Shown: piece after piece, positions 27,528 through 44,563 of the stretch | How positions within the stretch are numbered: the first letter of the stretch is position 1 | Layout of the letters: the number at the start of each line of letters is the position of its first letter | Assembly (NCBI GenBank): GCA_965242725.1 | Contig: CBDESZ010000006.1 | Span: forward strand, 64,001 to 128,000 | Reading direction: 5' to 3' | Origin: Alkalispirochaeta sp. | GTDB lineage: Bacteria; Spirochaetota; Spirochaetia; DSM-27196; Alkalispirochaetaceae | DNA: 64,000 nucleotides | Notes under the pieces: generated by a model | The model's database searches: none | What the model saw: the letters and a program-made list of their open reading frames with translations, nothing else | What the model was told of the DNA's origin: nothing | Program-made: the position numbers and the translations under genes

Positions 27528-28160
27528 TTAAGGATAGGCCGTAATACGTTTTATGATGTCCTTCCAGAGATTTGTCACTTCGATATCGCGAAATCCCGCC
27601 CGGCGAAGATTATCCACGGTTCGGCGGTTGATGTTTGCCCCATAAAGATGGAGTGGAAGAGGGTTTAGAACGTCCATAAGAGGACCGAGTATCGGGCCTT
27701 CACTGCGAACGTGCTCGAGCATGAGCACCTTACCGTCCGGTTTGCATACACGGTGAATCTCTTTGAGACCGGCTACGGGAAGTGGTACCGAGCAAAACAC
27801 GCATGTCGAGACAACCGTATCGAACGTATTGTCGTCAAAATCGAGGTGCTGTGCATCCATTTCCAGGAGCGTTACGTTAGATAGGCCATGCTGCGCTTTT
27901 CGGTCGGCTGCACGTGCAATCATCGCCCGGCTGAAATCGATCGCCGTGACCGAGACGTCCTTCGGGTAGTAGGGAAGGTTTTTACCCGTACCGACTCCCA
28001 CTTCAAGAACTGCACCTTTCGCGAAACTCAACAATTCTTCGCGCCACGACGACGCCATCCGCTCCATCGGGTTTTCTAATAGATCATATACGGGAGCGAT
28101 TCGGTCGTACCGTTGTTGGATTTTGTTAATTTGTTTTGTCATATCATGTACCTTAGTCAA
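27528..28160 (-). CDS. class I SAM-dependent methyltransferase, paralog of 13593-14258
   Basis: Same motifs with long identical peptide stretches. Confidence 0.88.
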   Translation of the reverse strand: MTKVHDMTKQINKIQQRYDRIAPVYDLLENPMERMASSWREELLSFAKGAVLEVGVGTGKNLPYYPKDVSVTAIDFSRAMIARAADRKAQHGLSNVTLLEMDAQHLDFDDNTFDTVVSTCVFCSVPLPVAGLKEIHRVCKPDGKVLMLEHVRSEGPILGPLMDVLNPLPLHLYGANINRRTVDNLRRAGFRDIEVTNLWKDIIKRITAYP

Positions 28161-28250: not shown

Positions 28251-28348
28251 TTGTTTTCTCCGGACGAAATACAGTTGCCTCGTTTTGCTGTTGCCATTCG
28301 ATGCCTTTGTTGGTTACGTTAGGATGTCGTAGACTACGGGGGTATGGT

Positions 28349-28627
28349 ATGATGAAAGAAGAACAGAGGGAAAAAGTACGGAACAGGTTACGCCGGATTG
28401 AAGGACAGATTGCCGGGATTGGTCGTATGATTGATGATGACCGATACTGTGTCGACATTCTCAACCAAACGTCGGCCGTCATCGCGGCGATCAGGAACGT
28501 TGAGAATATCGTAATGGAGAACCACTTGAACACATGTGTCGTCGATGCGATTCGGAGCGGAGATCCTGAGGAACAACGCCTGAAGACGACCGAAATTATG
28601 GATGTGCTTGGCAAGTATCGGAAGTGA
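28349..28627 (+). CDS. csoR: second CsoR-family repressor
   Basis: RLRRIEGQI, RYCVDIL, HLNTC; CTACGGGGGTATGGTAT overlaps its start. Confidence 0.88.
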   Translation: MMKEEQREKVRNRLRRIEGQIAGIGRMIDDDRYCVDILNQTSAVIAAIRNVENIVMENHLNTCVVDAIRSGDPEEQRLKTTEIMDVLGKYRK

Positions 28628-28657
28628 AGATATTCGCGGGGGCGCGAAACAGATAGA

Positions 28658-29302
28658 TTATCTACCGTCGCGGAATTTCACATAGAGGCGGCGCAGGGCA
28701 AAAATCGCGACTGAAACGCCAATTCCCATCAGTGACAAACGTATCCAATCGTTTCGGGCAAGTGCACTGCCCATGGAGAGAATGACAAAGGCAAAGGGTG
28801 TCATACCGATAAGGCTGGCGAGAGCGTAAGTGCGGAAGGAGACCGCTTTGGTCAAACCAAGCACGTAACTTGGTATCTCCACGGGAAATATCATCCGTAT
28901 AATGACGATCGCCAGAAAACCCGTGTCCCGGGGTATCCTGTTCTCCCATTCCTGCAGTCTCTCCGGGGAAACCAGTTTTACCAGAACCGGTCTGCCAAGA
29001 TACCGAGCGATGAGAAAAGCGATGACGGCACCGATCCACCAGCCAAGGATGCTCAGGATACCTCCTATGGTAATACCCCATGCCGCTGCCGCTATGGGTA
29101 TCAGTGGCATGGAAGAAAGGGGAAGGACCACGATCGCCGCGGCCGTCACGGCTACATAGATCATCGCCGTACCTACGGGGTAGTCGATGGCGTACTGGGC
29201 GATGACGGAAACCAACAGCGGAAAATATTGAAACGAAAACAACAGACCCGAGGCGATAAGCAGGGCGACAAGTACTCGTACAAGCAGAACCGGGAGTCTC
29301 AT
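28658..29302 (-). CDS. TVP38/DedA (VTT) membrane protein
   Basis: GAVIAFLIARYLGR, IRMIFP, SYVLGLT; start trimmed to MRLPV. Confidence 0.8.
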   Translation of the reverse strand: MRLPVLLVRVLVALLIASGLLFSFQYFPLLVSVIAQYAIDYPVGTAMIYVAVTAAAIVVLPLSSMPLIPIAAAAWGITIGGILSILGWWIGAVIAFLIARYLGRPVLVKLVSPERLQEWENRIPRDTGFLAIVIIRMIFPVEIPSYVLGLTKAVSFRTYALASLIGMTPFAFVILSMGSALARNDWIRLSLMGIGVSVAIFALRRLYVKFRDGR

Positions 29303-29802
29303 TTCTTCCTCCGGAAGACTCCCCAAAAAACCAATGCAAGTACCGCAACAAATATGAGCAAATGGTATACCCGTACATGGATTGGTCGGTGAAGGATATG
29401 TCGGTCCGGGGAAAACCAGGGAGACCACCGGTCGGTAGTTATACCCGGGGCCATTATGGTGTTGTTCCATTGCGGAATGGTACCGTCCATTTCAAGGTAG
29501 TGGCGGGCAAAACGTATATGGACGGCCATGTTTCGCGGTGAGCCGCGGCCGCCCATTATGTCGTTTAACCACTTGTGCCAGTCCGGGTCATCTACAATGG
29601 CACCCATGATTTGGAAACCGAGTTCTTCCATATCCGCCGGGGATACCAGGTCGGGGTCTATGTCACCCGGTCTGCGTACCCCCTGTTCTTCCATGATGCG
29701 GGCGGTGATTTCCATAACCGATTGTTCATCGGGAAAAAGGGAAAGTGCCGGGAGTACAAACAGGAGCAGAACGAAGACGGTTAATCGAGAACGACTGTGC
29801 AT
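29299..29802 (-). CDS. exported protein, divergent paralog of the HEWMD family
   Basis: IDPDLVS..MEELG..IMG....WHKWLNDIMGGRGS....H......YL. Confidence 0.65.
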   Translation of the reverse strand: MHSRSRLTVFVLLLFVLPALSLFPDEQSVMEITARIMEEQGVRRPGDIDPDLVSPADMEELGFQIMGAIVDDPDWHKWLNDIMGGRGSPRNMAVHIRFARHYLEMDGTIPQWNNTIMAPGITTDRWSPWFSPDRHILHRPIHVRVYHLLIFVAVLALVFWGVFRRKK

Positions 29803-29914
29803 CTGTAATCAGTATATCAGCGACCTTGAGCCGCAGGTGTCGAACCTACGATTTTTCGGACTTTGTTTGTATAATGTAGAAGAAATGAACAAGCAAAAAG
29901 GAATTTGGAAGCAT

Positions 29915-30609
29915 CTATAGGTAGCAGCTGGTATCTGAAATAGTTCAAATTTATCATTATTAAAACTATCTGACTTTTCAACACCAAGAATATCAATAAA
30001 TGATTCATCATTTTTTTCACTAGGCAAATAGACTGATATCAGAGGAGAATCAGTCACCTCTCCCCATCTACCATTTGTCAAATTCCAAAGCTCTTGGTAT
30101 TCATCTGTACATACGTATTCTTTCCAGAATTTAGGGCCTTCTTTAAAAAAGTTTTCATGTGTAAAGTTTTTACTCTTCCCTACCAATTCAAAAGACGGTT
30201 TTTCGACTATTTTATAATCCATATCATTTCCTCCTTTGATTTCGATATGAAAAGAAACACGATTATATGCCGATAATTTAACCTCAGAGCTGCGCACTTC
30301 TCGTGGATTAATACCATGCATATTCCGGAATGCTCTAGTAAACGCATTTGGTGATTCATAACCATATTTCAGAGCGATATCAATGACTTTTTCATTCCCA
30401 GCAGCGAGATCAGAGGCTGCTAAATTCAATCTTCGTCGTCTGATATATTCAGCAGGCGTAATCCCAATGATTGCATAAAACATTCGCTGAAAATGAAATG
30501 ATGAACAATTGGCTATCTTTGCTACTTCTGAAATCAGTAGTTCATATTTAATATTATCTTCAATATAATTGATTGCCATATTCATTCTTTCAGACCATTC
30601 CATTATCAT
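29915..30609 (-). pseudogene. AraC/Rob-type regulator with GyrI-like domain, 3'-truncated; probable gene cassette
   Basis: HFQRMF, YIRRRRL, YGYESPNAFTRAF; similarity stops at IPAATY; AT-rich; preceded by GTTAGAT core site. Confidence 0.75.
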
Positions 30610-30757
30610 GCTTCCTTGTTATGCATAGTAATAAATTTTAATTCTATGATCTCACCTTTTTATGCGATGCGATGTGTGTTTATACATTTCCAAACTGGCA
30701 CGGATGCCAGTTTGCCTATATATAATCCCTTCTCCCAAAAAAGGGCGGGGTAATTGC

Positions 30758-30785
30758 ATCTAACGTCCTGCGAATAGCCGAAGTT
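30758..30785 (-). other. partial attC-like site (right half only)
   Basis: AACTTCGGCTATTCGCAGGAC-GTTAGAT, a perfect GTTRRRY ahead of araC; no left arm found. Confidence 0.4.
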
Positions 30786-30856
30786 ACCAAGGCATTCACC
30801 TGTCAACAATGTCCTTAGCTTTCTGTAAACCATCTCCATGATCAGTACCTGTGTCC

Positions 30857-30955
30857 ACATAACGATGAGTTGAGTTGTTTGGCGTTAATCGGCGCGGTTG
30901 TTGCAGAAGCAAGAACCGTGACGATAGCCAAATCAACTCGAACGTGGTGTTATGT
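30857..30955 (-). other. integron attC site
   Basis: R'' ACATAAC, spacer ACCAC, L'' GTTCGAGT (extra C), stem TTTGGC/GCCAAA, L' ACTCAAC, spacer TCATC, R' GTTATGT. Confidence 0.85.
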
Positions 30956-31028
30956 GACTCAGGTTTTTGAGGTGGACCCCTTCGTCAAGACCACTCAACG
31001 AGGGTCTTAAGCTACTCCATTGCCCCGC

Positions 31029-31856
31029 TCAGGCTGCAGCCTGAGCGCCGCGCCGGTTGTATGCCATATTCGGCGTCTTCCCATCCACGGATGAGTGAGG
31101 GCGCCGTCCGTTGTACATCGTGATGTACTCATCGATTCGTTGCCGGGCTTCTGCCGGTGATTGGTAGTCGTTGAGGTACACCTCGTCGTACTTGATCGTC
31201 CGCCAGAACCGCTCGATGATTACATTGTCGAGAGCGCGGCCCTTGCCATCCATACTGATCTTCACGCCCGCATCTTTAAGGGGCTGCAGAAACGCCGGAG
31301 AGGTGAACTGTACTCCCTGATCGGAGTTGAAGATCTCCGGCGGCCCATACCGTCTGAGAGCCTGCTCGAGCACTTCAATCGCGGACGATTTGTCGAGAGT
31401 CAGGCTTACGTCCCAGCTCAACACCTTCCGGGAGAACCAGTCAATGATCGCCGTCAGGTACACGAACCCGTCTTCCAGCCGAATATAGGTCGTATCGATC
31501 GACCACACCTGGTTGGGACGCTCAATCGACAACCCTCTCAAGAGGTACGGGTATACCTCGTGTTCCGGCGGCAGGCGACGGTGATAGGTGTGCGGAAACA
31601 CCACACGCAGCATCATGAGCCGCATCAGACGCTGTACGCGCTTCCGGTTGACCGTCCAACCCTCCAGACGCAGGGCGTCACGGATCATTCGGCTGCCCCA
31701 CGTGATATGCGCGGTGTGGAGCTCATCGATCCGTTTCATAAGCTGATCGGTGTCCCGATCGACCTTCTGCGGTTGGTAGTACAGCGTTGATCGGTTCAGG
31801 CCCAACAGCATGCACTGCTCACGGACTGACAGTCTTTCGTGATCCGGCTCGATCAT
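31029..31856 (-). CDS. IS3 OrfB (DDE transposase)
   Basis: PNQVWSID, NSDQGVQF, DNVIIERFWRTIK. Confidence 0.92.
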   Translation of the reverse strand: MIEPDHERLSVREQCMLLGLNRSTLYYQPQKVDRDTDQLMKRIDELHTAHITWGSRMIRDALRLEGWTVNRKRVQRLMRLMMLRVVFPHTYHRRLPPEHEVYPYLLRGLSIERPNQVWSIDTTYIRLEDGFVYLTAIIDWFSRKVLSWDVSLTLDKSSAIEVLEQALRRYGPPEIFNSDQGVQFTSPAFLQPLKDAGVKISMDGKGRALDNVIIERFWRTIKYDEVYLNDYQSPAEARQRIDEYITMYNGRRPHSSVDGKTPNMAYNRRGAQAAA

Positions 31857-32161
31857 TTCCCGAAGTTCGGCAGCTGATCGACTCCCAGTTTTTTTTTCAG
31901 GAAATCGATCTGTACTTGCTGGTGACCGACCTTCCGGTATAGCTCATCTCGTTCGGCCTCAGTGGCCTGTTGCTCGTCATCATGCTTGCCGGCAAAGATG
32001 TCCGGCCCATGATCCATCAGCTCTTTCTTCCAGCGATGGACCTGCGTCGGATGAACGCCATATTCCTCGGCGATCTCCGTCACGCTGCGGTCAGCCTTGT
32101 AGGCCTCCATCGCAACCTTGAACTTGGTCGCCTTGTTCCATGTTGTTCGTCGTCGTCCCAT
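31853..32161 (-). CDS. IS3 OrfA (HTH)
   Basis: FKVAMEA, YGVHPTQVHRWKK, DFLKKK. Confidence 0.88.
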   Translation of the reverse strand: MGRRRTTWNKATKFKVAMEAYKADRSVTEIAEEYGVHPTQVHRWKKELMDHGPDIFAGKHDDEQQATEAERDELYRKVGHQQVQIDFLKKKLGVDQLPNFGK

Positions 32162-32259
32162 GGTGCAAAACCTCCGATTCCCATTCCAACGCAATCTTCA
32201 TGCGTTGTCCAGTTTTCGGGGTCCACCATATTTCGTACAAAAGAATCGAAGCAAGAGCG

Positions 32260-32562
32260 CTAATTCGTCTTGGCGAGTACTCGCGGGATCTTTCTCAAGT
32301 CTTCTTTCAGCCGTTCCTTTTCATCGCGAAGATCATACTCATCCTGGATACCCATCCAGAACTCCGCCGAGTTTCCAAAATACGCCGATAATCGAAGCGC
32401 GGTGTCCGCAGTAATACGCCGATTACCTTTTAGGATCTGCGATATTCGAGTCGCCGGCATCCGGGTGTCCTGGGCAAGTCGGTACGCACTGATTCCCATC
32501 GGCTCGAGGAATTCTTCTTTCAATATTTCTCCGGGAGTAACATTGGGAATTTCGTCCATCAC
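32260..32562 (-). CDS. higA: HigA antitoxin
   Basis: TPGEILKEEFLEP, ITADTALRL, AEFWMGIQ. Confidence 0.92.
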   Translation of the reverse strand: MMDEIPNVTPGEILKEEFLEPMGISAYRLAQDTRMPATRISQILKGNRRITADTALRLSAYFGNSAEFWMGIQDEYDLRDEKERLKEDLRKIPRVLAKTN

Positions 32563-32794
32563 ATCCTCCTAGTGGTAATCCACGATTTCGACGTCGTGAG
32601 CCGATCCGTTTTCCCAACGAAAACAGATCCGCCATTGATCATTAATCCGCACGCTATGCTGACCTGATCGACCCCCCGATAATGATTCCAGTCGATTCCC
32701 TGGTGGTATTCGGAGATCATTCAGATCTCGGGACCGATGAATCATGACGAGTTTGCGATAGGCGGTTTTCTGAATCGGTTCGGGGATTTTTTTT

Positions 32795-34127
32795 GGTTCA
32801 TCGCAGATTAGCGGGGAATAGTCAGTAGAAGGAAATAGCAAGATGGCGGCCCACCGGGTACTGTTTGAGTCGACCAAGATCCAAACACCGGAGGACCACC
32901 ATGCAAGCTATTCACCAAGATATCGACCTTCTGGGAAACTGGGAAGGCTACCGCGTTCGCGGTATCAGGGTTCCTGTGAACCAGAATCGAAAGATCCGTG
33001 TTGAACTCCATCCGAAACACGGGTGGTGGGGTGGGTGCAGCCGGTGTGGATGTACCGGCTGCGACTACCACGATCGTACAACTCGGGTAGTCCGAGACCT
33101 CCCGGTATTCGGCCAAGCGGTTGAACTTCGTGTCCTCGTACGACGGGTGATTTGTCCGGTATGTGGCCCCAGCCGTGAATCGATCCCCTGGTTGGATTCG
33201 TATGCACGCGTCACGAGACGGTTGGCCGATACCGTCTGCCGGATGGCAGAGATCATGACGATCAAGGACGTTGCGAAGACGTTTCTGCTTGCCTGGCATA
33301 CGGTGAAGAACATCCACAAACGGTACCTAACGCACCTCCTTGAGCCGGTTGATCTCAACGGGGTCACCCAGCTTCTGATCGATGAGTTTGCTATCCAGAA
33401 AGGGCATCGATACGCGACGGTAGTCGTCGATGCAGTGCGAAAACGGGTACTGTGGGTCGGAAGGGGCCGCTCACGAGCCTCTATTCGTCCGTTTTTTGAG
33501 CTGCTCGGGGACCAGCGACACAACATCAAAGCGGTCGCACTCGATATGAGTAGCGCCTACATCAATGAAATCGCCGAACAGTGTCCACACGCGCAGGTGA
33601 TCTTTGATCACTTTCACGTCATCGCCCGCTACGGTCGCGAGGTCATCGATCGCGTCCGCGTTGATGCCGCCAACCGATATCGACATGACCCGATACAGCG
33701 GAAGCTGGTCAAAGGGTCTCGTTGGCTCCTATTACGAAACCCCAGCAACATCACCCGACCGGAAGACCGGCAACAACTCGACGAGCTGCTTGAAATCAAC
33801 AAGGAACTATCGCTGGTGTACATCATGAAGGAGCACCTCAACCATCTCTGGCGGTTCGAAGATCAGATTACCGCTCGTGCGTGGTGGCATCAGTGGTATC
33901 GCATGGCGATCAACAGCAACATCGACGCGTTAATCAAGTTCGCTCGGAATCTATCCGTTCACGTGGAGGGCTTGTTGGCACACACAAGATACCGGCTGAA
34001 TACCGGTGTCCTCGAAGGTATGAACAACAAGATCAAGGTGATCAAGCGGGTCGCCTTTGGCTTCCGGGATGACGAATACTTCTTTCTTCGCATCCGTCAC
34101 GCATTCCCCGGAGTTCGACGATGAACC
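32795..34127 (+). mobile_element. ISL3-family element
   Basis: IRs GGTTCATCG........CGGGGAAT at both ends, 8-bp T duplication, empty site visible in copy 2. Confidence 0.93.
32901..34124 (+). CDS. ISL3 transposase
   Basis: CxxC zinc finger, IDEFAI.KGH.Y, ALDMS, FDHFH, EGMNNKIKVIKR..FGFR. Confidence 0.93.
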   Translation: MQAIHQDIDLLGNWEGYRVRGIRVPVNQNRKIRVELHPKHGWWGGCSRCGCTGCDYHDRTTRVVRDLPVFGQAVELRVLVRRVICPVCGPSRESIPWLDSYARVTRRLADTVCRMAEIMTIKDVAKTFLLAWHTVKNIHKRYLTHLLEPVDLNGVTQLLIDEFAIQKGHRYATVVVDAVRKRVLWVGRGRSRASIRPFFELLGDQRHNIKAVALDMSSAYINEIAEQCPHAQVIFDHFHVIARYGREVIDRVRVDAANRYRHDPIQRKLVKGSRWLLLRNPSNITRPEDRQQLDELLEINKELSLVYIMKEHLNHLWRFEDQITARAWWHQWYRMAINSNIDALIKFARNLSVHVEGLLAHTRYRLNTGVLEGMNNKIKVIKRVAFGFRDDEYFFLRIRHAFPGVRR

Positions 34128-34220
34128 TTTTTTTTTGAAAACTCTTGCCGCCAGATTCTCGACGTCTCTTTGTCCTTAAATGACTCGATCACCTAGGCTA
34201 ATAATAACGCAATACATCAT

Positions 34221-34244
34221 TGACGTAAAGCGTCATTATGACGC
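34221..34244. promoter_or_regulatory. candidate HigA operator in the cassette promoter
   Basis: Overlapping palindromes TGACG-N5-CGTCA and GCGTCAT-T-ATGACGC. Confidence 0.5.
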
Positions 34245-34307
34245 GAGAGCGTACCTTCGGTTTCTGCGTCAATCGCGTATTGCAATTTGGCTTCGCGTTC
34301 CGGAGTC

Positions 34308-34384
34308 ACATAACGACCGCATCACCTGCGCCCTCGCAGGAGCGAAGCGACGAGAAGGCGTCTGGTGAATGCGCGATGTTATGT
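34308..34384 (-). other. integron attC site, 62 bp upstream of the HUH transposase
   Basis: R'' ACATAAC, CATTCACC/GGTGATG with one extra base, GACGCC/GGCGC with extra A, spacer CGGTC, R' GTTATGT. Confidence 0.85.
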
Positions 34385-34446
34385 TGCGCACGGTGACCAC
34401 GCCCCCTATCTGAAGCAGGAAGCTCGCTACGCCCGTATGTGTTTAT

Positions 34447-35784
34447 GTGAGCACGGCAATCTCTGTCGCGACCGCGGTAAGGAATCAATACGTTCCCCGC
34501 GGCCGCAACGAGCTCCATACTATATTCGAGCGGCACTTCGGCGACTTCTGCGCCCAGTACGATGAGAAGTACGCCGCCACTTACGGCCGGTATCGCCTTG
34601 AGCGCATCCAGCAGATCGGGGAGCGGTTTTGCACCTGTGGCGACTATCTCCAGGGCGTCGCGCGGATACGCTGCACGAATCCCGAATGCGGACACGATTA
34701 CTTCCGACCGTTCTCCTGCAAGGGGTTTTATCTTTGTCCGTCCTGCAGTCGCAAACGAACCATCCTGTTCGCTGAACACCTGACAGACGAGGTCCTGCTC
34801 AAGCTGCCGCATCGGCAGTTCGTTTTCACGATGCCCAAAGCACTCCGGCCGTTCTTTCGCCACGATCGACGCTTGTTCGCCGAGGTGTCTCGCCTAATCT
34901 ACGACATCCTCCGTGATTTTTACCAAGAGGCCGCGGGCAGACCGCTGCTCACCGGCATGGTCATCGCGCACCAGACGTTTGGAGACATGCTCCGCTGGAA
35001 CCCTCATTTCCACGCCATCGTTTTGGAGGGCGGGTTTGATGATGAAGGTACGTTCTTCTACATCCCGTTCTCTGGGCTCCAGTCGATGGTCGAGGTATTC
35101 CGGCGTCGGGTGATCAAGCTGGTGGTGCAACGGGAGCTCCTGAACGATGACTTCGCTCGAAACCTTCTATCCTGGAGACACTCCGGTTTCAGTATCGACA
35201 ACAGCGTACGCATACTCGACGAGTCCTCCCAGGAAAGCCTGGCGGAGTACATAGCACGGCCGCCGATCTCGCTGAAGAAGATCCGCTACGAGCCGTTCAA
35301 AGGGAAGGTCCTATTTCACACCAAGTACTCGGAGTATTTCAAGCAGAACTTCCATCTGTTCGATGCCTTAGACTTTTTGGCCGAGTTAACGCAGCACATC
35401 CCGCCGAAACGTCTACAACTGATTCGGCGTTACGGGCTCTATGCCTCCCGCACAAAGGGACGGTGGGCACAGATGCCATGGGTTGTGGAACGAGCACCGG
35501 ACGGATGGAAGACCGACCATCAATGCGGTGATGTCGCAGATGATCCTGGCTACGAGCCATTGTCGGATGGGGATGAAGAGGTCGATATCAATGCGAGCAA
35601 ACGCGCCTGGGCCCGACTACTCGCGAAGGTCTATGAGGTCGATCCGATGGTCTGCCCAAAGTGCGGTGCGGACATGAAGGTGATCGCCGTCATCGAGGAT
35701 CCCGACGAACTGAAGCGTATCCTCCGACATCTGATCAAGATCGGGCGGTCCCCACCGGGATTCGATCCCGATCGCCTTAACTGA
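34447..35784 (+). CDS. IS91/ISCR-family rolling-circle HUH transposase
   Basis: Cys-rich Zn domain (FSCK...CPSC), PHRQFVFT, NPHFH HUH, single-Tyr EYIARP, IRRYG, C-terminal CPKCG. Confidence 0.92.
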   Translation: MSTAISVATAVRNQYVPRGRNELHTIFERHFGDFCAQYDEKYAATYGRYRLERIQQIGERFCTCGDYLQGVARIRCTNPECGHDYFRPFSCKGFYLCPSCSRKRTILFAEHLTDEVLLKLPHRQFVFTMPKALRPFFRHDRRLFAEVSRLIYDILRDFYQEAAGRPLLTGMVIAHQTFGDMLRWNPHFHAIVLEGGFDDEGTFFYIPFSGLQSMVEVFRRRVIKLVVQRELLNDDFARNLLSWRHSGFSIDNSVRILDESSQESLAEYIARPPISLKKIRYEPFKGKVLFHTKYSEYFKQNFHLFDALDFLAELTQHIPPKRLQLIRRYGLYASRTKGRWAQMPWVVERAPDGWKTDHQCGDVADDPGYEPLSDGDEEVDINASKRAWARLLAKVYEVDPMVCPKCGADMKVIAVIEDPDELKRILRHLIKIGRSPPGFDPDRLN

Positions 35785-36000
35785 CTGCTCTCTCGGCCTC
35801 GCGCCGTGGCATCCGTGTGTCCGTCTTACGCCCCAATCGTTTCCGTAACAGCCCTGATCTGTCCGTTTGGACGTTTGCGTACTCGAGTGGGCGGCAAGTG
35901 CGCCGCCGGCGCACGGCGAACCGCGATTCTCGTCGTGATTTCGTCGAGTCTTGCGCCTACCGCCCGTTTTCCGGTTGCGCTCGCGGATAACTCTTCCTAC

Positions 36001-36068
36001 TACTGGTGCTTCTCGAGTCGGAGGGCATGCGCCTCGAGGATGTCGTCGCCGAGCTCGCCTCGCGCTGA
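36001..36068 (+). pseudogene. 3' remnant of a hisE/hisIE-like gene
   Basis: Reads LVLLESEGMRLEDVVAELASR*, resembling the HisE C-terminus; starts at the TACT junction. Confidence 0.55.
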
Positions 36069-36161
36069 CCGACTGACCGGCCGTCATCGCGGCGGGCCTG
36101 TTGCGGACGACCTTCCGTCGGAACGGGCGACCCGGCGTACGGCGCGCGCCGTCCCCGGTCG

Positions 36162-37523
36162 TTACGGCGTGGCCGTCGGACCGGCAGGTTCGGCGTACTC
36201 CATCGGCCCCTCGTCGGGGTTGTACGAACTTTCGGCGTCCTGAACGGCGCCGGGCGGCAATGGAACGTCCCCCGCCAGGAGGGGGTCTCCGGTCCGACGC
36301 ATCCACGACTCCAGTCGTTCCTCCAGCGCAGCCCGTACCTCCGCGTACCCCGGGTCATCGGCGACGTTCACCCGCTCGAGGGGATCGATGTTGAGGTCGT
36401 AGAGCTGCACCGCGTCCAGGGGAAAATTCCTCACCCCCGCGTCGAAGAGGTGGTGCTTCGACGCGCTGCCGTCGATGTTGACGGGAACGAGGCGGGGCGG
36501 CGTGAGAAATCGCTTGATCAGCTTGTGGTCCCGGGTACGGATGGCGCGCTGTGGCTCGTACCGGGCGTGGTACGTCACTTCCGCGAACAGCTCGTCCCGG
36601 ATCTGATCGCGCTCACCCGTGAGGAGGGGAAGCAGGGAGCGACCCTCGAGGTTCGCCGGCGCGGGGATCCCCGTCAGTTCGCAGATCGTCGGAAAGATGT
36701 CGAGGTGCGAGACGAGGCCGTTGACGACCGATCCGCGGGCGGGGTTGCCGGGATAGTCGAGGATGAGGGCGACGCCGATGCCCGTATCGTAGAGGGTGCA
36801 CTTGTTGTAGGGGTACGCCACCCCGTGGTCCGTCGTGAAGATGATGATCGTCTGCTCCCGGAGCCCCGCGGCGTCCAGGGCGTCCAGCACGATGCGCACG
36901 CAGCGGTCGACGACGCGGGCGGAGGTGACAAAGCCGGCGTAATCCTCCCGCGCTTCGGGGGTGTCGGTGACCTCCCGGGGAGGCAGGAGGCGGTCAGGCT
37001 CGACCCCTTCCTCGACGGGGGGAAACTCCCGGTGCGTGTTGAACATACCGAAGGAGAGGAAGAAGGGGGAGTCGCTTTCACCCGCCTTCGTGAGGTACGC
37101 CGCGGCGCTCCGGGCGTTGGAGAGGTCGTACTCGACGGTGTCGAAGTCGTGGGCGTTGGCCATCGAAATCCCGAAGTCGTCGAGGACCTCGTCGTATCCG
37201 ATCGCGTCGACCGGCTCCGCCTCGTGCTGGATACCCGACAGGGCCGTTCGGTAGCCCGCGGCCGTGCAGTGGCGCACGAGATGCTCCTCGTAGTCGTAGA
37301 GCCGGAACCCCCGGTGAGCGAGGCCGAGCATTCCCGCGCGGTGGGGGCTCGTGCCGGTGAGGAGTCCCGCCCGACTGGGGGAGCACGTCGGGGCGGTGCT
37401 GTACGCCTGGCGGAAGAGGGTTCCCCGCCGGGCCAGCTCGGTGATTGCCGGGGTGCCGACGGCGTACCCGTAGGGGTCGAAGTACCGCCCGCTGTCGTGC
37501 GTGTGAAGGTAAAGAATGTTCAT
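36162..37523 (-). CDS. Cys-type sulfatase
   Basis: MNILYLHTHD, CSPSRAGLLTG, TTDHG, K.TLYD.G. Confidence 0.9.
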   Translation of the reverse strand: MNILYLHTHDSGRYFDPYGYAVGTPAITELARRGTLFRQAYSTAPTCSPSRAGLLTGTSPHRAGMLGLAHRGFRLYDYEEHLVRHCTAAGYRTALSGIQHEAEPVDAIGYDEVLDDFGISMANAHDFDTVEYDLSNARSAAAYLTKAGESDSPFFLSFGMFNTHREFPPVEEGVEPDRLLPPREVTDTPEAREDYAGFVTSARVVDRCVRIVLDALDAAGLREQTIIIFTTDHGVAYPYNKCTLYDTGIGVALILDYPGNPARGSVVNGLVSHLDIFPTICELTGIPAPANLEGRSLLPLLTGERDQIRDELFAEVTYHARYEPQRAIRTRDHKLIKRFLTPPRLVPVNIDGSASKHHLFDAGVRNFPLDAVQLYDLNIDPLERVNVADDPGYAEVRAALEERLESWMRRTGDPLLAGDVPLPPGAVQDAESSYNPDEGPMEYAEPAGPTATP

Positions 37524-37567
37524 CGTGTGTTGACCTTTCATGTGTGGTGTCACCGCGGTGCTCCACA

Positions 37568-38401
37568 TCAACCCTTGATGGCGCCGAGGGTGAGCCCCCG
37601 GACGATGTGGCGCTGCGCGTAGGTAACGAGGACAAACGCCGGCACCGCCGCGAAGAGGGACGCCGCCGCCATCTCTCCATACTCCGTCCGCCACTCCTGG
37701 ACAAATCCGGCGATGCCGATCGGAACGGTCATCCCGTTGGGGGTACTCGTGAGAACGAGGGCGAGGAGAAACTCTTTCCAGGAGAAGAGGAAGACGAGAA
37801 TCATCGCCGCCGAAATGGCGCCCTGGACGACCGGAAGGATCACCGCCCAGAGGGTCTGCAGCTCGGACGCGCCGTCGATCATCGCCGACTCCCGCAGTGC
37901 CGGGGGTACCGCGGCAAACCCGTCCTGGAGGATCCACAGCCCGAGAGGAATATTGAAGAGGGTGTGCGCTACGATTACCGCCGCCGGGGTGTCGTAGATC
38001 CCGACGGATCGGGCAAAGAGATACAGCGGCGCGGCGAAGATGATCGGCGGGAGGAGGTGGACGAGGAGCAGCCACAGGGTGACGACGCTCTTGGCCCCCG
38101 CACGCCAGCGAAACTGGGCGAGACTGTACGCGGCGGGACCGGCGATGAGCAGCACCAGGACCATCGTTCCGCTGGAGGAGATGACGCTGTTGATGGTCAG
38201 GCGCAGAAAGTCGCTGCGAACACCGTCGAAGAGGCGCTGATAGTTGATCAGCGTCGGCTCAAAGACAAAAGAACCGCTCATGATGTCCCGGGTAAACTTG
38301 AGGGACGTCGCTCCCGTGAAGAGCACCGGGACGACGAGGATTATCAGCCACAGTGAAACGATGGCAACGGTAAAGAATCGGGCACGTCGGGTTGAGTTCA
38401 T
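37568..38401 (-). CDS. carbohydrate ABC permease
   Basis: ESAMIDGAS loop, SWKEF. Confidence 0.9.
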   Translation of the reverse strand: MNSTRRARFFTVAIVSLWLIILVVPVLFTGATSLKFTRDIMSGSFVFEPTLINYQRLFDGVRSDFLRLTINSVISSSGTMVLVLLIAGPAAYSLAQFRWRAGAKSVVTLWLLLVHLLPPIIFAAPLYLFARSVGIYDTPAAVIVAHTLFNIPLGLWILQDGFAAVPPALRESAMIDGASELQTLWAVILPVVQGAISAAMILVFLFSWKEFLLALVLTSTPNGMTVPIGIAGFVQEWRTEYGEMAAASLFAAVPAFVLVTYAQRHIVRGLTLGAIKG

Positions 38402-38416
38402 GCTTCCTCCTCTGCC

Positions 38417-39292
38417 CTACTCGCGGTCGAGCCGCGCAAGAACAACGCGATAGACGATGATGATCGACAGGACGATTACCGACAGGAGGATTGTGAGAAA
38501 CGATCCGTAGCCGATGCGGTTCTGCACGAAGTACACCTTGTAGATGTACAGGTTGAGCACCTCCGTCGCCGTTCCCGGGCCACCGTTGGTGAGGAGGTAC
38601 ACCTGATCGAATACCTTGAACGCGAAGATCAATCGCAACATCAGTGCCGTGGCGATCGAAGGGCGAAGGAGTGGCAGAATCACGTGACGACGGATCTGGC
38701 GCGACGAAGCGCCATCGACCTGGGCAACCTCAAAGAGCTCGTGAGGGAGAGATTCGAGACCGGCGTAGACGATCAGAAAAACGAAGCTCGTCCAGTGCCA
38801 GATGTCGACGATGATGATCGTCAGCAGCGCGAGGTTGGGGTCCGCGTTCCACGTCGGACCCTGGACGCCGACGAGAGACAGAATCATGTTGAAGAGACCG
38901 AAGTTGTAGTCGTACATGAGCCGCCACATCGACCCGATGGCGATCGGCGGAATCAGGATCGGGAAGAGCAGGAGCGTCTTCGCGAGGACCGTCGTTTTGC
39001 GGAGGCTGCCGATCATCAGCGCCAGTGCCGTTCCCAGGATACCCTCGACGATGACGACCACCGCAACGTAGATGAAGGTGTTGCGCAGGGCGATTCCGAC
39101 GACCGGGTCGGCGATCGCGGTACGCGCGTGCTTGAGACCGACAAAGGTCCGGGTGACCTGCGATCCCGAGAATGAGACTTCGGAGACACCCATCTGGACG
39201 AGCTGGATGATGGCGTAGGTCGAGAAGACCATGAGGAAAAGAAAAAGCGGCACCATGGCCCGATACTTGAACGGCATCGATATCTGCTGCAT
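38417..39292 (-). CDS. carbohydrate ABC permease
   Basis: EVAQVDGAS, LTNGGPG. Confidence 0.9.
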   Translation of the reverse strand: MQQISMPFKYRAMVPLFLFLMVFSTYAIIQLVQMGVSEVSFSGSQVTRTFVGLKHARTAIADPVVGIALRNTFIYVAVVVIVEGILGTALALMIGSLRKTTVLAKTLLLFPILIPPIAIGSMWRLMYDYNFGLFNMILSLVGVQGPTWNADPNLALLTIIIVDIWHWTSFVFLIVYAGLESLPHELFEVAQVDGASSRQIRRHVILPLLRPSIATALMLRLIFAFKVFDQVYLLTNGGPGTATEVLNLYIYKVYFVQNRIGYGSFLTILLSVIVLSIIIVYRVVLARLDRE

Positions 39293-39392
39293 GGACGGTC
39301 CTTTGTTTCGTCGAAGATTTCGTCGAAATGGCGCGGAAGAGGGCCTGTGCTCTCTTCCGCGCCGGGATGGGTCAGTTCTCGGAGCGGAGAGT

Positions 39393-40721
39393 CTACTCGA
39401 CGATCACCGCATTGTAACCGGCACCGTCGAGGACGGCGAAGATCTCTTCGGCGGCGTTCTGCATCGCTTCTGCCGGTGACTCCTGGCCGATCACGGCGTA
39501 GCCGATCTGCCGCTTGATGATGTCGTTGATCTGGGCACTCTCGGGGATCCGCAGCTGGGGCGAGATGTACGGGGTGGATGCGGCAAACCCTTCCATCCAC
39601 CATCCGATTTCGGGGTCACTCGAGAGGGTGTCGTAGGTGTCCTGTCGCACCGGGATCGCTCCCGCCTGGGTGTACGCGATCTGGTTTTCCGCCGTGAGGA
39701 GATAGTCAAGAAAGTCCACGGCGGCCTGTTTGCGGTCGTCCGGAATATTGTGGGGCACTCCCATCGTCCAGATGCCGGTCATCGTGGTGCGGGAGTCCGC
39801 CGTCCGGCCCGGGACGGGCACGGCGCGGATCTGGCCGGCGACGATCGACTCTTCCTCATTGTCAAAGGCGGGGGCTGCCGCGCCAACGACGATCGCCTGG
39901 GCGAGACGTCCGCTCTGCAAGAGTCCCATGAGCTGGGCCTGACCGATGTCGGCGAAGTTCGCCGGTCCGTACTCGGCGGTCATGTCGAGCAGGTACTCGA
40001 GGGCTTCGATCGACTCGGAGCTTCCGATCAGTACTTCCCAGACGCCGCTGTCGGCGTTGTAGATCACGTAGCCACCACCGAAGCTCTCGAAGACGGCGTT
40101 GGTTTCCCACTCCGGCGGGTTGGTGCGCCAGGCAAATCCGAGAACGTCATCACTGCTCACCGCTTCGGCGATCGCACGGACCTCGTCCCAGGTGGTGGGC
40201 GGATCGAGTCCCGCCTCTTCGAGGAGATCGGCGCGGTAGAAGAAGAGCTGGATGTTTCCATTGACCGGAACGGCGTACATCGTGCCGTCCGGAGAGGCCA
40301 CGCCCGTCTCGGGGTCCCAGAACGCGGCGTTACCATAGTCGATGACGTTCTCGTCCAGGGTGAAGGATGGTCTGATCTCGGTGATCGGCGTCAGCCAGTC
40401 GTTGGCGTAAAACTCGAGCATCCACTGCTCGTTGAGGTTGATCAGGTCAAACTCGCTCTCACCCGCGGTAACGGCGTTGCGCGACTTCGGAAGCATCGCC
40501 GGAAAGGGGTTGACGTCGAGACGCACCGGATTGCCCGTCTCCTCGATGTACTTCTCGACGATCGCCTCGAAGCCGGGCAACCACGGGGACGTGTTGATCA
40601 GAATCGAGATCTCCGGATTGGTCCCCTCCGGGGCATCTCCTTCCGGTTGGCCGCCGGCCATCGCGAGACCCGTTATCAGGGTCAGGGCAACCAGGGTGGC
40701 AAAAAAGCAACGTATACGCAT
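39393..40721 (-). CDS. carbohydrate ABC substrate-binding protein
   Basis: Signal ending MAGGQPE, FYRADLLEEAG, PTTWDE. Confidence 0.88.
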   Translation of the reverse strand: MRIRCFFATLVALTLITGLAMAGGQPEGDAPEGTNPEISILINTSPWLPGFEAIVEKYIEETGNPVRLDVNPFPAMLPKSRNAVTAGESEFDLINLNEQWMLEFYANDWLTPITEIRPSFTLDENVIDYGNAAFWDPETGVASPDGTMYAVPVNGNIQLFFYRADLLEEAGLDPPTTWDEVRAIAEAVSSDDVLGFAWRTNPPEWETNAVFESFGGGYVIYNADSGVWEVLIGSSESIEALEYLLDMTAEYGPANFADIGQAQLMGLLQSGRLAQAIVVGAAAPAFDNEEESIVAGQIRAVPVPGRTADSRTTMTGIWTMGVPHNIPDDRKQAAVDFLDYLLTAENQIAYTQAGAIPVRQDTYDTLSSDPEIGWWMEGFAASTPYISPQLRIPESAQINDIIKRQIGYAVIGQESPAEAMQNAAEEIFAVLDGAGYNAVIVE

Positions 40722-40867
40722 TACCGTATCCTCCTTGTAGATCGTGGCCGATAAATTCGGTCGTCTTCAGTGTCGAACGAGAATCCGGTTATGTCAACCT
40801 GTTTCTTTACCGGTTGCTATACGTGTATCGAAACCGTTGACAGCAGAGATTGCGCCTCGTACAGTAG

Positions 40868-42079
40868 ATGGCGGGGAGACGCGTGAAAACGAATCAGCAC
40901 GAGGTCCGAGTGGCCAACACCAGAAAGATACTCGATCTCCTGCGCCAACAACCGGCTCTCACCGTGCGGGAGTTGTCGACGGAGACGCGGCTCAGCCGAC
41001 CGACGGTGGCCAAGATTCTCGCGCTCCTCACCGGGGCAGGGGTCGTCAGCGATCGGGAGACGGGAGAGTCGACCCTCGAGGGCGGCAAGCCTCCGCGACT
41101 CTTCTCCCTCAACGCCGAGGGAGGGCACCTCATCGGAATCCACTACTCGGGCAACCACTTCTTCGGCAGCCTCGTCGATCTCCAGCTTCGTGTCATGACC
41201 TCCGTCGCCCAACCCGTGCCGGCGGAGATTCGGGCCAGCGAGCTCGTCGATCTGCTGGACCAGATGGTTCGGGGGCTGTTGGTCAGTTCCGATGTCACCG
41301 GGGGGCGCTGCCTCGGCATCGGGATCGGCACGCCCGGTGTCACCGACCTCGGGCTTGGCGAAGTGGTCTTCTCCCCGCACCATCCCGGCATCGGCGAGCA
41401 CCTCGCCCTGCGGGACCTCCTGGCGGAGCGTCTCGAGTACATCGCACCCGTCTTCGTCGACAATTCGATCCGGTTTCGCACGATCGCCGAGCAAACGATG
41501 GGCCACCTCCGGGGCGTGCGGGACGGAGCGGTGATCTACTGTGACGACGGCCTCATTTCGGGACTGCTCCTGGACGGGCAGATCCGGCGGGGCCCCAACA
41601 GTCTGGCCGGCTCGATCGGACACATGACGATCAACCCCGGCGATCCGGTACAGTGTGCCTGCGGCGGATACGGCTGCTGGGAGATGCAGGTTTCTCCGGA
41701 CCGGCTCGTCGCCGAGATGCGCGCCCGCCTCACACGGCGTTCCCCGAAGGATTCTCCCGGTGAGGAACTGACGGTTGCGACGGTACTCGATCGCGCCGAC
41801 GAGGGTGATCCCGACGCGGTAGAGCTCATCGAAGGCGTCGCCCACTGGTTTGCCGTGGGAATCCACAACATGATTCTCGCCTACGATCCCGAGACGATCG
41901 TCATCCAGGGGGTCTACGCAAGACCCGACAGCCACTTCTTTCGATCCCTGACGGCGCAGATTACCGACGTTTCTCTCGTTCGGGCACCCTTTCAGACCCG
42001 GGTGGTCTGTTCGTCCCTCGGAAAGGACGCCGCCAATATCGGCGCGGCGTCCTACTCCCTGTCCATGGCGCTGGCGTGA
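40868..42079 (+). CDS. ROK-family transcriptional regulator
   Basis: N-terminal HTH, GGKPP, GIGIGTPG, IGHM....CACG..GCWE. Confidence 0.9.
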   Translation: MAGRRVKTNQHEVRVANTRKILDLLRQQPALTVRELSTETRLSRPTVAKILALLTGAGVVSDRETGESTLEGGKPPRLFSLNAEGGHLIGIHYSGNHFFGSLVDLQLRVMTSVAQPVPAEIRASELVDLLDQMVRGLLVSSDVTGGRCLGIGIGTPGVTDLGLGEVVFSPHHPGIGEHLALRDLLAERLEYIAPVFVDNSIRFRTIAEQTMGHLRGVRDGAVIYCDDGLISGLLLDGQIRRGPNSLAGSIGHMTINPGDPVQCACGGYGCWEMQVSPDRLVAEMRARLTRRSPKDSPGEELTVATVLDRADEGDPDAVELIEGVAHWFAVGIHNMILAYDPETIVIQGVYARPDSHFFRSLTAQITDVSLVRAPFQTRVVCSSLGKDAANIGAASYSLSMALA

Positions 42080-42096
42080 CGAGGGGTGCCCATTGT

Positions 42097-42243
42097 GCCA
42101 CGTCGCCGGGCGCGCGGATTGATGGACTGGTGGCCGATCATGGCGAGACGGTCGTCGCTACGCCGCCGGGCGCGTGGGTTTATGGACTGGTGGCCGATCA
42201 TGGCGAGACGGTCGTCGCCACGTCGCGGGGCGTGTGGATTGAT
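42097..42243. repeat. 60-bp tandem repeat, about 2.5 copies
   Basis: Units start at 42097, 42157, 42217; core ATGGACTGGTGGCCGATCATGGCGAGACGGTCGTCGC. Confidence 0.85.
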
Positions 42244-42256
42244 CGGGTACCCGCGG

Positions 42257-42628
42257 TCAGTACAGCCGGCCACCCTCGGGCACCGGCGCATCCGGCGCGA
42301 TGAGAACGACGGCACCCGTCTCATCGGGAACCCCGAGGGTCAGACACTCCGACTTGAAGCCGGCGACGCGCTTGGGCGGCAAATTGGTGACCGCCAGGAC
42401 CTGACGGCCCGCGAGCTCGTCGGGGGTGTAGCGATCGGTGAGCTGCGCGCTCGACCAGCGGACGTCACCGCCGCCGAAGTCGATGCGCAGTTTGATCGCC
42501 GGAACCCGCGCTTCCGGGAAGGGGATCGCTTCCCGGACGGTGCCCACCCGGATCTCTACCTGACCGAATGCGTCCCACACGGAGGGAGCCGGTGATTCCC
42601 CGTCGATGGCAGGCGTCGCCCCGGTCAT
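42257..42628 (-). CDS. csaA: tRNA-binding protein / export chaperone
   Basis: EIRVGTV, SSAQLT, NLPPKRVAGFKSECLTLG; start uncertain. Confidence 0.85.
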   Translation of the reverse strand: MTGATPAIDGESPAPSVWDAFGQVEIRVGTVREAIPFPEARVPAIKLRIDFGGGDVRWSSAQLTDRYTPDELAGRQVLAVTNLPPKRVAGFKSECLTLGVPDETGAVVLIAPDAPVPEGGRLY

Positions 42629-42677
42629 CCCGGCGTGGCGCGGATCGCCACCCCTCGGGTTCGACGTACCCATCCGA

Positions 42678-43814
<1,137 letters not shown>

Positions 43815-43879
43815 TTACGGGAAGACCGCCCGGACCGACGGGTCCCCGTCACGGAAGTCCTCGCGCGGGAAGTCCGTCC

Positions 43880-44563
43880 TCAGGGGAAGACCGTCCGGAG
43901 CTCCATCAGGACCACCTCCTCACTGCGATACCCTCCCCAGATCGTGAGGACGCTCTCTTCCGGCGTCTCGCCGGAGATGTAGTAGCCCTTGAGAAGGCCG
44001 AGGTTGTCCAGGAGCATGTCCTCAAACTCGTTGTAGCTGCCGGCGCGACGGTTTCGGACGATTGAGTCACCCGTCAGGGTTCCTTCCTCGAAAGTGAGGC
44101 TCTCCCGGGGCGAGGCGGTGTCGATGCGAAAGGTGTAGGAGCCCTCGATGGTGTTCTGCGGACCACGGACGTGGATCGGACCGCTCCCGCTCGTGTTGCC
44201 GGGGTCGTGGGTCGCGCTCGGGCGGAGTTCGATCCAGACGTCCCGGGTCGGGGGAACGAGTCGGCGCATATCTCCGTAGAGGCGGACGAGCTCCCACCGC
44301 GTCTCCACCAGGGGCGCGTGACCGAGGGGCGCCGGCTCCTCCGGTTGCGGCAGGGGTTCCGCCGGCAGCTCCGGCGGGATCGGCTCCGGTGGAGGTGCGG
44401 GAAGGGCAATCGGGGGCGCGACCGGGGGCGCGGGTATCCCAAAGGGGAGGGGCTCCGGGTCGCCGGCACAACCGGCGAGGAGGATCATCGCACCGATCAC
44501 GATCGCTCCCGCCAGAGTGCTCCGGGCACCGGGGGGCATCCGGCGCGAACTGCGTCTCTTCAT
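43880..44563 (-). CDS. Pro-rich lipoprotein, possibly META domain
   Basis: Lipobox LAGC, Pro linker, LVETRWELV. Confidence 0.6.
   Translation of the reverse strand: MKRRSSRRMPPGARSTLAGAIVIGAMILLAGCAGDPEPLPFGIPAPPVAPPIALPAPPPEPIPPELPAEPLPQPEEPAPLGHAPLVETRWELVRLYGDMRRLVPPTRDVWIELRPSATHDPGNTSGSGPIHVRGPQNTIEGSYTFRIDTASPRESLTFEEGTLTGDSIVRNRRAGSYNEFEDMLLDNLGLLKGYYISGETPEESVLTIWGGYRSEEVVLMELRTVFP

Follow-up and report, generated by a model that had tools for sequence, protein, structure and literature searches.

We analysed a stretch of 64,000 nucleotides from Alkalispirochaeta sp. (assembly GCA_965242725.1, contig CBDESZ010000006.1, positions 64,001 to 128,000 of the forward strand; hereafter, the window) that holds an insertion sequence (IS) of the IS91 family next to an array of integron gene cassettes. 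The left end of this IS is an imperfect hairpin of the attC type, the type of site that delimits integron cassettes, and directly on its outer side lies a higBA toxin-antitoxin cassette, which in turn is followed by an araC cassette that has lost its 3' end. A 4.1-kb block comprising the start of araC, the attC of the higBA cassette (attC2), the higBA cassette, the hairpin, and the IS occurs twice in the window, and high-GC DNA lies between the two copies (Table 1).

Table 1. Features of the cassette array, the IS91-family element, and the duplicated block; positions are those of the window, and R1 is the attC covariance model described in the text.
Feature	Position	Strand	Evidence or remark
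AraC-family regulator gene (open reading frame)	29809-30609	-	Pfam HTH_18 and HTH_AraC
araC cassette, 3' end and own attC lost	29917-30862	-	cut at 29916/29917
attC2 (attC of the higBA cassette), 99-nt imperfect hairpin	30857-30955	-	predicted recombinogenic bottom strand is +
IS3-family IS inside the higBA cassette	30968-32230	-	NF033516, 273.8 bits; Pfam rve and HTH_Tnp_1
higA antitoxin gene	32260-32562	-	TIGR02607, 104.3 bits
higB toxin gene, split by the ISL3-family IS in copy 1	32569-34190	-	Pfam HigB-like_toxin
ISL3-family IS, copy 1 only	32795-34127	+	NF033550, 329.7 bits; 8-bp T duplication
77-nt imperfect hairpin, attC type, left (terIS-side) end of the IS91-family IS	34308-34384	+	
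tnpA, IS91-family HUH (Y2) transposase gene, 445 aa	34447-35784	+	NF033538; Pfam Y2_Tnp and Zn_Tnp_IS91
Right (oriIS-side) end of the IS91-family IS	35945-36004	+	conservation across copies stops at 36000-36004
Donor copy (copy 1) of the 4.1-kb block: 87 bp of araC, attC2, IS3, higBA, hairpin, IS91	30523-36004	+	self-BLAST
High-GC DNA between the copies, 16.3 kb	36005-52306		64-70% GC; rest of window 38-60%
Second copy (copy 2) of the block, without ISL3	52307-56447	+	100% identity
Lone attC where the sister genome has attI and then intI	62715-62822	-	R1, 88.2 bits

From 34313 to 30863 the higBA cassette measures 3451 nt; subtracting 1266 nt for the IS3-family element and 1341 nt for the ISL3-family element, each with its duplication, leaves 844 nt, exactly the length given in a preliminary description of this locus made from the letters alone. 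A sister genome (G003), which is 99.9-100% identical to the window over shared DNA, carries a 99% identical version of the cassette that lacks both elements and measures 842 nt, followed by an attC2 of 97% identity. The IS3-family element inserted with a 3-bp duplication (TTT), and the two flanks overlap by 3 nt at this position in the uninterrupted G003 cassette. A further copy of the ISL3-family element lies elsewhere in the window genome (contig C6, 4895-6233). As the preliminary description had also noticed, the first 12 nt of the higBA cassette are complementary to its own R'' flank; among the six G003 cassettes that we checked in the same way, four starts are fully complementary, including that of the cassette after the IS hairpin, and two are partly so. 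The araC cassette that follows in the window has a start that is 100% identical in G003, where it stands behind a different attC. Based on these comparisons, we consider the higBA and araC units to be true cassettes.

The 445-aa transposase scores 148.4 bits against NF033538 (cut-off 125), matches Y2_Tnp (E 6e-22) and Zn_Tnp_IS91 (E 5e-13) in Pfam, and contains an HFH triplet and a YGLY motif, which we take to be its catalytic motifs. Against NF052416, which describes clade Ia, the sole ISCR clade modelled, it reaches 129.8 bits with a cut-off of 925. According to passages of PMC13181058 and PMC13393415, elements of the IS91 family have terIS upstream and oriIS downstream of tnpA, and the geometry in the window agrees: a spacer of 62 nt, as previously counted, separates the hairpin from the start of tnpA, and the right end lies ~220 nt downstream of the gene. 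By its transposase sequence and the geometry of its ends, the element is placed in the IS91 family, outside ISCR clade Ia.

We scored the two hairpins with R1, a home-made covariance model that is specific to this clade; it serves as a proxy for the model of IntegronFinder and differs from it. R1 was trained on 15 attC sites adjacent to genes for integron integrases (IntI) in three genomes (G020, G016, and G001), and none of the training sites came from the window genome or from any IS91 locus. The initial alignment had 19 sites, of which four were misaligned (G020_h, G020_j, G020_m, and G002_a) and were removed before R1 was built; pairs for the R-box and L-box were added by hand to the 15-site alignment (A2). 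Compensatory changes are seen at 16 of the 26 pairs predicted in A2. Run with filters off over 96 kb, comprising the window and two other regions of the same genome, R1 matched attC2 with 83.3 bits (E 6e-21) and the IS hairpin with 45.3 bits (E 6e-10). Both matches are full-length and on the plus strand, the corresponding minus-strand scores being 30.4 and 18.6 bits, and the best unrelated matches in the 96 kb do not exceed 12.3 bits. Over 282 kb around the integrases of relatives, R1 gave 51 matches of 28-102 bits, mostly in arrays and many at sites not used for training. The arrays beside intI in the three training genomes contain hairpins with the same terminal boxes as those in the window, and the boxes of the IS hairpin are identical to the attC boxes of the clade.

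Folded as DNA, attC2 is more stable on the plus strand (-28.9 kcal/mol, z -8.0) than on the minus strand (-21.6 kcal/mol), while the IS hairpin is nearly strand-equal (-19.2 and -18.5 kcal/mol on the plus and minus strands, respectively). Because the longer 3' arm of the hairpins is on the plus strand and attC2 folds better there, we take the plus strand to be the attC bottom strand and the cassette genes to lie on the top strand, in agreement with the minus-strand orientation originally assigned to both sites. We conclude that, as judged by R1, both hairpins have the sequence and structure profile of attC sites with respect to R boxes, L boxes, bulged bases, and strand asymmetry. Rfam at gathering thresholds reported nothing at either hairpin, its sole match in the window being a tRNA. 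A partial third attC that had been suspected to the left of araC gave no R1 match at E<=10, and the araC cassette is simply cut there. Genome scans that combined regular expressions with folding were flooded with GC-rich false hairpins and were used as leads only.

We collected 77 loci with transposase relatives, mostly from soda-lake and marine Spirochaetes and also from Thioalkalivibrio, Ectothiorhodospiraceae, Chloroflexales, Planctomycetota, and metagenome-assembled genomes (MAGs) of Sulfurovaceae. When the 319 nt upstream of tnpA were compared with these loci by BLAST, similarity started at 34308-34314 and the DNA farther left was unrelated; the right-hand box of the hairpin is constant, and the first three to four letters of its left box vary with the flank. 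One locus in another MAG (L018) holds a 99.9% identical copy of the IS with an identical hairpin in different surroundings, and hairpins of the window type with 88-97% identity occur in further unrelated contexts (L042, L043, L013, and L034). For a survey, we considered the 30 loci with at least 41% transposase identity, an N-terminus, and at least 190 nt of upstream DNA. Half of them (15 of 30: L010, L011, L012, L013, L014, L018, L020, L029, L031, L033, L034, L042, L043, L046, and L048) have an attC-type hairpin upstream, its end lying 46-71 nt from the start codon (in L031, 156 nt), in line with the position of about 60 nt upstream that the preliminary description had proposed to look for. 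This count pools R1, BLAST, and visual marking of motifs: 11 of the 15 hairpins are R1 matches at E<=0.01 immediately upstream of tnpA, the hairpin of L048, whose tnpA is interrupted farther down, is a twelfth R1 match and lies 46 nt before the start of this gene, and the remainder were recognized by BLAST or by eye; a hairpin finder written in Python missed L042, L043, and L046. The hairpins are 61, 77, or 131-138 nt long, their type tracks the lineage of the IS, and four degenerate copies (L050, L061, L074, and L078) have retained one. No upstream match was obtained for ten distant relatives, mostly Aminicenantes, with 31-36% identity.

The pairing of the IS hairpins is conserved as well. 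An alignment of 15 matches at IS loci, itself fitted by the model, includes both strands of L010 and three matches located elsewhere than immediately upstream of tnpA. In it, compensatory changes are present at 14 of 24 pairs, and pairing holds in 90.3% of cells; none of 500 shuffles reached this value, and slid controls stayed at or below 38%. Because copies become homologous only from within the left box onward and the type of hairpin follows the lineage, we regard the hairpin as the left boundary of the IS, as the earlier proposal that an attC replaces terIS had it. The two outcomes named in the preliminary description as speaking against it, rejection of the sites by an attC covariance model and a lack of upstream attC sites in transposase homologues, did not occur: R1 accepts both sites, and homologues carry the hairpin.

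A separate feature of the 77-nt IS hairpins is a near-invariant central stretch (window 34330-34360; also in L013, L018, L029, L034, L042, L043, L048, and L024), which persists despite compensatory changes in the arms and is missing from the attC sites of arrays; it may be a transposase-binding or promoter feature. In L024, from a Desulfobacterales MAG, a gene for a ParE-type toxin and a small open reading frame, a candidate antitoxin without a Pfam match, lie between an IS-type hairpin and the start of tnpA (1727-2713); complementary boxes flank the pair, and the box normally found beside tnpA is reduced to a stub.

At the other end of the IS, conservation stops at 36000-36004 in an alignment of 13 loci and the two window copies, and a locus that is 100% identical up to there (L019) diverges after 36004. 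The last four letters are TAYT in eight of the 15 aligned rows, NATT in three, TATC in one, and other in three. TACT stands at the left edge of the 4.1-kb block, after both right ends in the window, and after the G003 copy, and it may be target-derived. No target duplication was seen in L034 or L043, and the right-end region folds no better than shuffles (z -0.8). From these boundaries, we place the mobile unit at about 34311-36004 (1.69 kb); the hairpin forms its terminal structure on the terIS side.

The comparison with G003 bears on whether cassettes have been exchanged at this hairpin. Contig C53 of G003 starts inside the left end of the IS91 element, with hairpin and spacer 100% identical over 93 nt, and continues beyond the hairpin with five cassettes, the higBA cassette, attC2, and further cassettes. 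Beyond the same IS end, G003 therefore has another cassette (cassette 1) where the window has higBA, and the break lies exactly at the R' box. A similar break is found at the other end of the higBA cassette, where window 28337-30865 is 100% identical to G003 contig C1 and identity ends at the attC2 box; in G003, the attC that precedes the araC cassette is cut by another IS3-type element. Because the IS and the hairpin are identical in the two genomes and the cassettes that follow are different, we conclude that cassettes were exchanged at the R' box of the IS hairpin, most simply by IntI. The homology of the araC side to a paralogous chromosomal region (contig C16) ends at 29916 and did not reveal an ancestral junction there. 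A search of relatives for an arrangement in which the flank to the left of copy 1 adjoins the G003 DNA to the right of the IS returned only paralogous islands of ~70% identity.

The preliminary description had found no intI in the window, and none was detected in the 4.34-Mb assembly (91.8% complete), in which the best match to TIGR02249 reaches 77 bits with a cut-off of 265 and tblastn with the IntI of G003 gives at most 30% identity. Among the 22 family genomes searched, including the window genome itself (G000, negative), eight encode an IntI above the TIGR02249 cut-off; that of G003 scores 385 bits and has an attI adjoining. Contig C42 of G003 starts inside the same IS91 element (100% identical) and continues with TACT, 3.65 kb that are missing from the window genome, DNA that matches window 56448-62721, a box with an attI-like sequence, and finally intI. 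The integrase gene and attI of G003 are thus situated about 10 kb beyond the IS, behind ordinary genes, which does not fit the suggestion that the IS occupies the place where a divergent intI would normally sit. In the window, the lone attC is where homology to G003 breaks off, at 62721 within its box, and neither a further attC nor an intI was found beyond this site on the contig. A complete integron, with intI and attI beside the array, was not found in the window genome, and the comparison indicates that the array became integrase-less through loss of an intI and attI that survive in G003. Because this assembly contains no IntI, any action of IntI here would have been historical or in trans. 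The earlier idea of the hairpin as a docking site for an IntI supplied in trans gains comparative support, in that different cassettes adjoin the R' box and G003 encodes an IntI.

The block has also moved as a unit, as previously stated. Self-BLAST identified 30523-32794 with 52307-54578 and 34128-36004 with 54571-56447, both at 100%. The right edge of this repeat coincides with the right end of the IS, and its left edge is 3.8 kb past the hairpin, inside araC, which is continuous in copy 1 only. Because of these two edges, we infer that copy 2 arose by one-ended rolling-circle transposition that read through both the hairpin and attC2. The pseudo-terminator at the left edge (30523) folds weakly (-1.9 kcal/mol, z -0.7). 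According to their Pfam matches, the genes of the insert between the copies encode a sulfatase, a sugar ABC transporter, a ROK regulator, an isocitrate/isopropylmalate dehydrogenase, a DUF711 protein, a transketolase, an FGGY kinase, and an aromatic amino-acid lyase; copy 2 cuts the lyase gene at 52306, and its right flank is not the remainder of that gene. As to the origin of the insert, the 22 family genomes hold relatives of at most 77% identity, and none for the lyase part. The insert also contains tandem repeats at 47089-47214 (three units of ~43 nt) and 42097-42237 (two units of 60 nt).

Taken together, we consider it probable that an active IS91-family element with an attC-type left end heads a genuine cassette array, has undergone recombination at this end, and has read through its own hairpin. 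What is observed comprises the anatomy, the attC-model scores, the conservation of the hairpin as IS boundary, the differing cassette neighbours, and the duplication; from these, we infer the enzyme acting at each junction and the order of events as follows. The array would be the remnant of an integron whose intI and attI persist in G003. Because the end of the IS resembles an attC, integron-type recombination would have acted on it: IntI would have excised the five cassettes that separate the hairpin from the attC preceding higBA, and a second such excision would have joined attC2 to araC. Separately, read-through by the transposase of its own hairpin would have generated the 4.1-kb unit with the higBA cassette, attC2, and the first 87 bp of araC; this unit would have landed in foreign DNA, moved again together with 16.3 kb of it, and recombined with the resident copy. 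Such an order of capture has been proposed for ISCR1.

At the level of the hairpin, the transposase presumably nicks the minus strand at the outer end of the hairpin, just past the left-box GTTA (read on the minus strand). This end would be the R' end of the attC, where IntI would cut the plus strand 3 nt away; the two activities would then meet on one box but on opposite strands. In the IS91 model, the displaced strand is complementary to tnpA, which here would be the attC top strand. IntI prefers the bottom strand of attC, and the top strand is a poor IntI substrate. The earlier suggestion that single-stranded DNA from rolling-circle replication favours attC folding is therefore weak for this element.

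The alternative that most needs to be weighed is that an ordinary IS91 element lies beside an ordinary attC cluster, that the hairpin resembles an attC because both are GTT-ended hairpins processed as single-stranded DNA, and that IntI never uses it; the differing neighbours would then reflect transposase action at look-alike sites or other rearrangements. According to PMC13181058, the terIS of IS91 is by definition a single imperfect subterminal palindrome beside a GTTC-like cleavage site, and the IS hairpins conserve a central stretch that array sites lack. Several further observations weigh against our reading and, in part, favour this alternative. R1 is a home-made model of narrow scope and not that of IntegronFinder. 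No hairpin was detected at 15 of the 30 homologue loci, two of which (L016 and L022, 85-87% identity over the first 120 aa) have in common another upstream sequence, located before a GAAGCA motif kept ~40 nt before most tnpA starts. None of the ten other homologue loci with at least 2 kb of left flank shows a further attC (default filters; window, G003, and L024 set aside), and cassette collection as a trait of the family, as had been envisaged, is not supported. The assembly of the window genome encodes no IntI. In G003, the IS is split across two contig ends (C53 and C42), and its continuity there is deduced. Moreover, the boundary of the IS, after the third letter of the left box, and the crossover of IntI, 3 nt further in, are inseparable by sequence, and junctions made by the transposase are therefore possible.

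We nonetheless regard the look-alike explanation as unlikely. A model trained only on IntI-adjacent sites assigns the IS hairpin 45 bits with the right strand bias, within the range of 28-102 bits for true sites, and the boxes of the hairpin are identical to those of the attC sites of the clade. Two sister genomes with an identical IS have a different cassette that starts in register at the R' box. Finally, a solo hairpin that is 95-97% identical to the left end of the IS stands before an MNT/HepT cassette elsewhere in the window genome with no IS91 element adjoining.

The layout of copy 1, high-GC DNA, and copy 2 could, furthermore, be an assembly artefact, in which the assembly path ran chimerically through a repeat common to two replicons or organisms. 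GC content jumps by ~10 points exactly at the repeat edges. In Logan unitigs of run X18, the probable source sample, both junctions (36004/36005 and 52306/52307) are present at 100% identity, which argues against an artefact; however, the unitigs cross both junctions by k-1 overlap only and are too short to link across the 4.1-kb repeat, and the insert has a unitig depth of 2-5, compared with 12.7-14 for the IS91 element, which is present in two copies, and 29.7 for IS3. Other organisms are present in run X18 as well, and their related conserved genes reach much higher depth. On the other hand, a free circle of insert and unit would hold metabolic genes only and no replication gene, and the assembler threaded other exact repeats in this contig. 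We consider an artefact distinctly improbable. A tandem of unit, insert, and unit and a chromosome accompanied by a circle or a subpopulation fit the unitigs equally and cannot be told apart by them. Runs X1, X3, and X8, seemingly one data set, have the G003-type arrangement. Two other aspects of the duplication do not sit easily with our reading. The junction to the right of copy 2 deviates from a simple insertion when compared with G003, 3.65 kb being missing, and in the event that produced copy 2 the hairpin failed to stop replication; for IS91 itself, the excerpt of PMC13181058 states that termination fails in 1-10% of events or more.

We find it very unlikely that the IS homes to attC sites and that the hairpin is that of its target: the IS does abut a cassette start in register, but the same hairpin travels with it into unrelated contexts (100% identical in L018 and 88-97% in L042, L043, L013, and L034), the type of hairpin follows the IS lineage, and no attC half is present at the right end in any of the 13 aligned loci. 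That tnpA and the hairpin are themselves a gene cassette moved by IntI is hardly credible: the hairpin is at the 3' end of the tnpA unit in top-strand terms and a box-like GATAAC lies near the right end, but conservation between copies runs 12-16 nt beyond GATAAC to 36000-36004 in 13 loci and the right-end flanks have neither attC nor attI.

The reading that the IS carries an attC-type end and has recombined there would allow a further step. A one-ended rolling-circle product could close into a circle bearing the hairpin, and IntI could insert this circle at attI via the hairpin, so that IS91 elements with an attC-type end could turn ordinary DNA into integron cassettes. The layout of G003, as assembled from contig ends, is intI and attI, ~9.9 kb of ordinary genes, the IS91 element with its hairpin, cassette 1, and cassette 2; as named from their translations, the ordinary genes are Lnt-like genes, a heavy-metal P-type ATPase gene, an ArsR-like regulator gene, and a peptidase-like gene. 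This arrangement fits one giant first 'cassette' that ends in the IS hairpin. We put this step forward tentatively and think that it is rather less probable than not by a wide measure.

The element shares several features with the IS91 family as represented by the HUH Y2 rolling-circle elements IS91, IS801, and IS1294: a transposase above the NCBIfam cut-off with Y2_Tnp and zinc-binding domains, two unlike ends with an imperfect palindrome upstream of tnpA and a conserved end downstream, no visible target duplication in L034 and L043, and mobilization of upstream DNA by left-end read-through. It differs in that the left-end palindrome, which is 61-138 nt long, is built and scores as an attC with the R boxes of the clade, and in that the letters beside the right end are TAYT in eight of 15 rows, not GTTC or CTTG. 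Compared with ISCR elements in complex class 1 integrons, the window likewise has an IS91-like element beside an integron array, one-ended rolling-circle capture of adjacent DNA, and a duplicated segment that brackets captured DNA; by contrast, its transposase scores far below the value for clade Ia, the element has a conserved left end and abuts the array at an attC box, and cassettes themselves have been mobilized. In clusters of attC sites lacking an integrase, termed CALIN in PMC7923331 and PMC9229058, one equally finds R'' and R' boxes, imperfect palindromes of variable length with the longer arm on the 3' side of the bottom strand, cassette starts complementary to their own R'' flank, toxin-antitoxin cassettes, and no intI within the contig, but the first site of the array in the window doubles as the terminus of a transposable element and moves with it.

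Neighbourhoods of this kind have been touched upon before. Excerpts describe ISShvi3, an IS91-like element, beside an attC in a Shewanella integron (PMC9229058), attC calls at or after ISCR28 for which the paper itself states that data are not shown (PMC12772301), and speculation that ISCR-type elements might move CALINs (PMC7923331). In the ISShvi3 and ISCR28 reports, an IS91-family gene similarly adjoins an attC-like site directly in an integron context; as far as the excerpts go, however, the site is not treated as the end of the element, and neither conservation across copies nor cassette exchange is considered. A full-text literature search found passing remarks only and no paper that describes the terIS of an IS91-family element as an attC-type site. 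To these observations, the window adds a single-gene lineage whose terIS is an attC-type site, direct evidence from the sequences of two genomes for cassette exchange at the end of an IS, and a cassette that appears to have been carried off by read-through transposition.

Among the main systems by which bacteria capture genes are integrons and IS91/ISCR elements, which both act on folded single strands. The link between them has so far been mainly one of physical neighbourhood, e.g. ISCR1 behind class 1 integrons. If our reading is true, a transposon can have cassettes hung onto it by an integrase; it can also import foreign DNA and, with no integrase present, mobilize cassettes and arrays. 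The element could then carry arrays between genomes integrase-free, as the 4.1-kb copy does for one cassette. A possible route to new cassettes would also become testable with defined partners, namely this IS and the IntI of G003.

Other observations concern the cassettes and the remainder of the window. In both genomes, a homopolymer run throws higB out of frame: the run has nine A in the window and seven A plus TT in G003, where eight A would be in frame. The run is at 54571-54579 in copy 2, at 32787-32794 and 34128-34136 in copy 1, and at about 1500 in L124. The ISL3-family element of copy 1 inserted into this same run, and higB is frameshifted in copy 2 and in G003. From the sequence, the higB toxin gene looks inactive, and higA is intact.

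The solo hairpin mentioned above (contig C6, 4790-4866; 36 bits with R1) stands before an MNT/HepT toxin-antitoxin cassette; this cassette has its own attC, with which it pairs, at 3830-3938 (75.8 bits). At this locus (L007, G000:C6:1-12000), the ISL3 copy is 31 nt away, and a gene for a 559-aa N6-methylase-like protein follows the array. A second integrase-less array in the window genome (L008, G000:C5:120000-139999) has 11 R1 matches with E<=0.011 on one strand, from 1294 to 18724, three of them at 84-89 bits.

Elsewhere in the window, a tRNA gene is located at 63440-63512 on the minus strand. A direct repeat of 659 nt with 97.6% identity (3384-4041 and 12866-13523) and an inverted repeat of 467 nt with 70% identity (13725-14191 and 27544-28010) both lie in a region with copper- and cadmium-type resistance genes, as judged from translations resembling CsoR, CopZ, and P-type ATPases.

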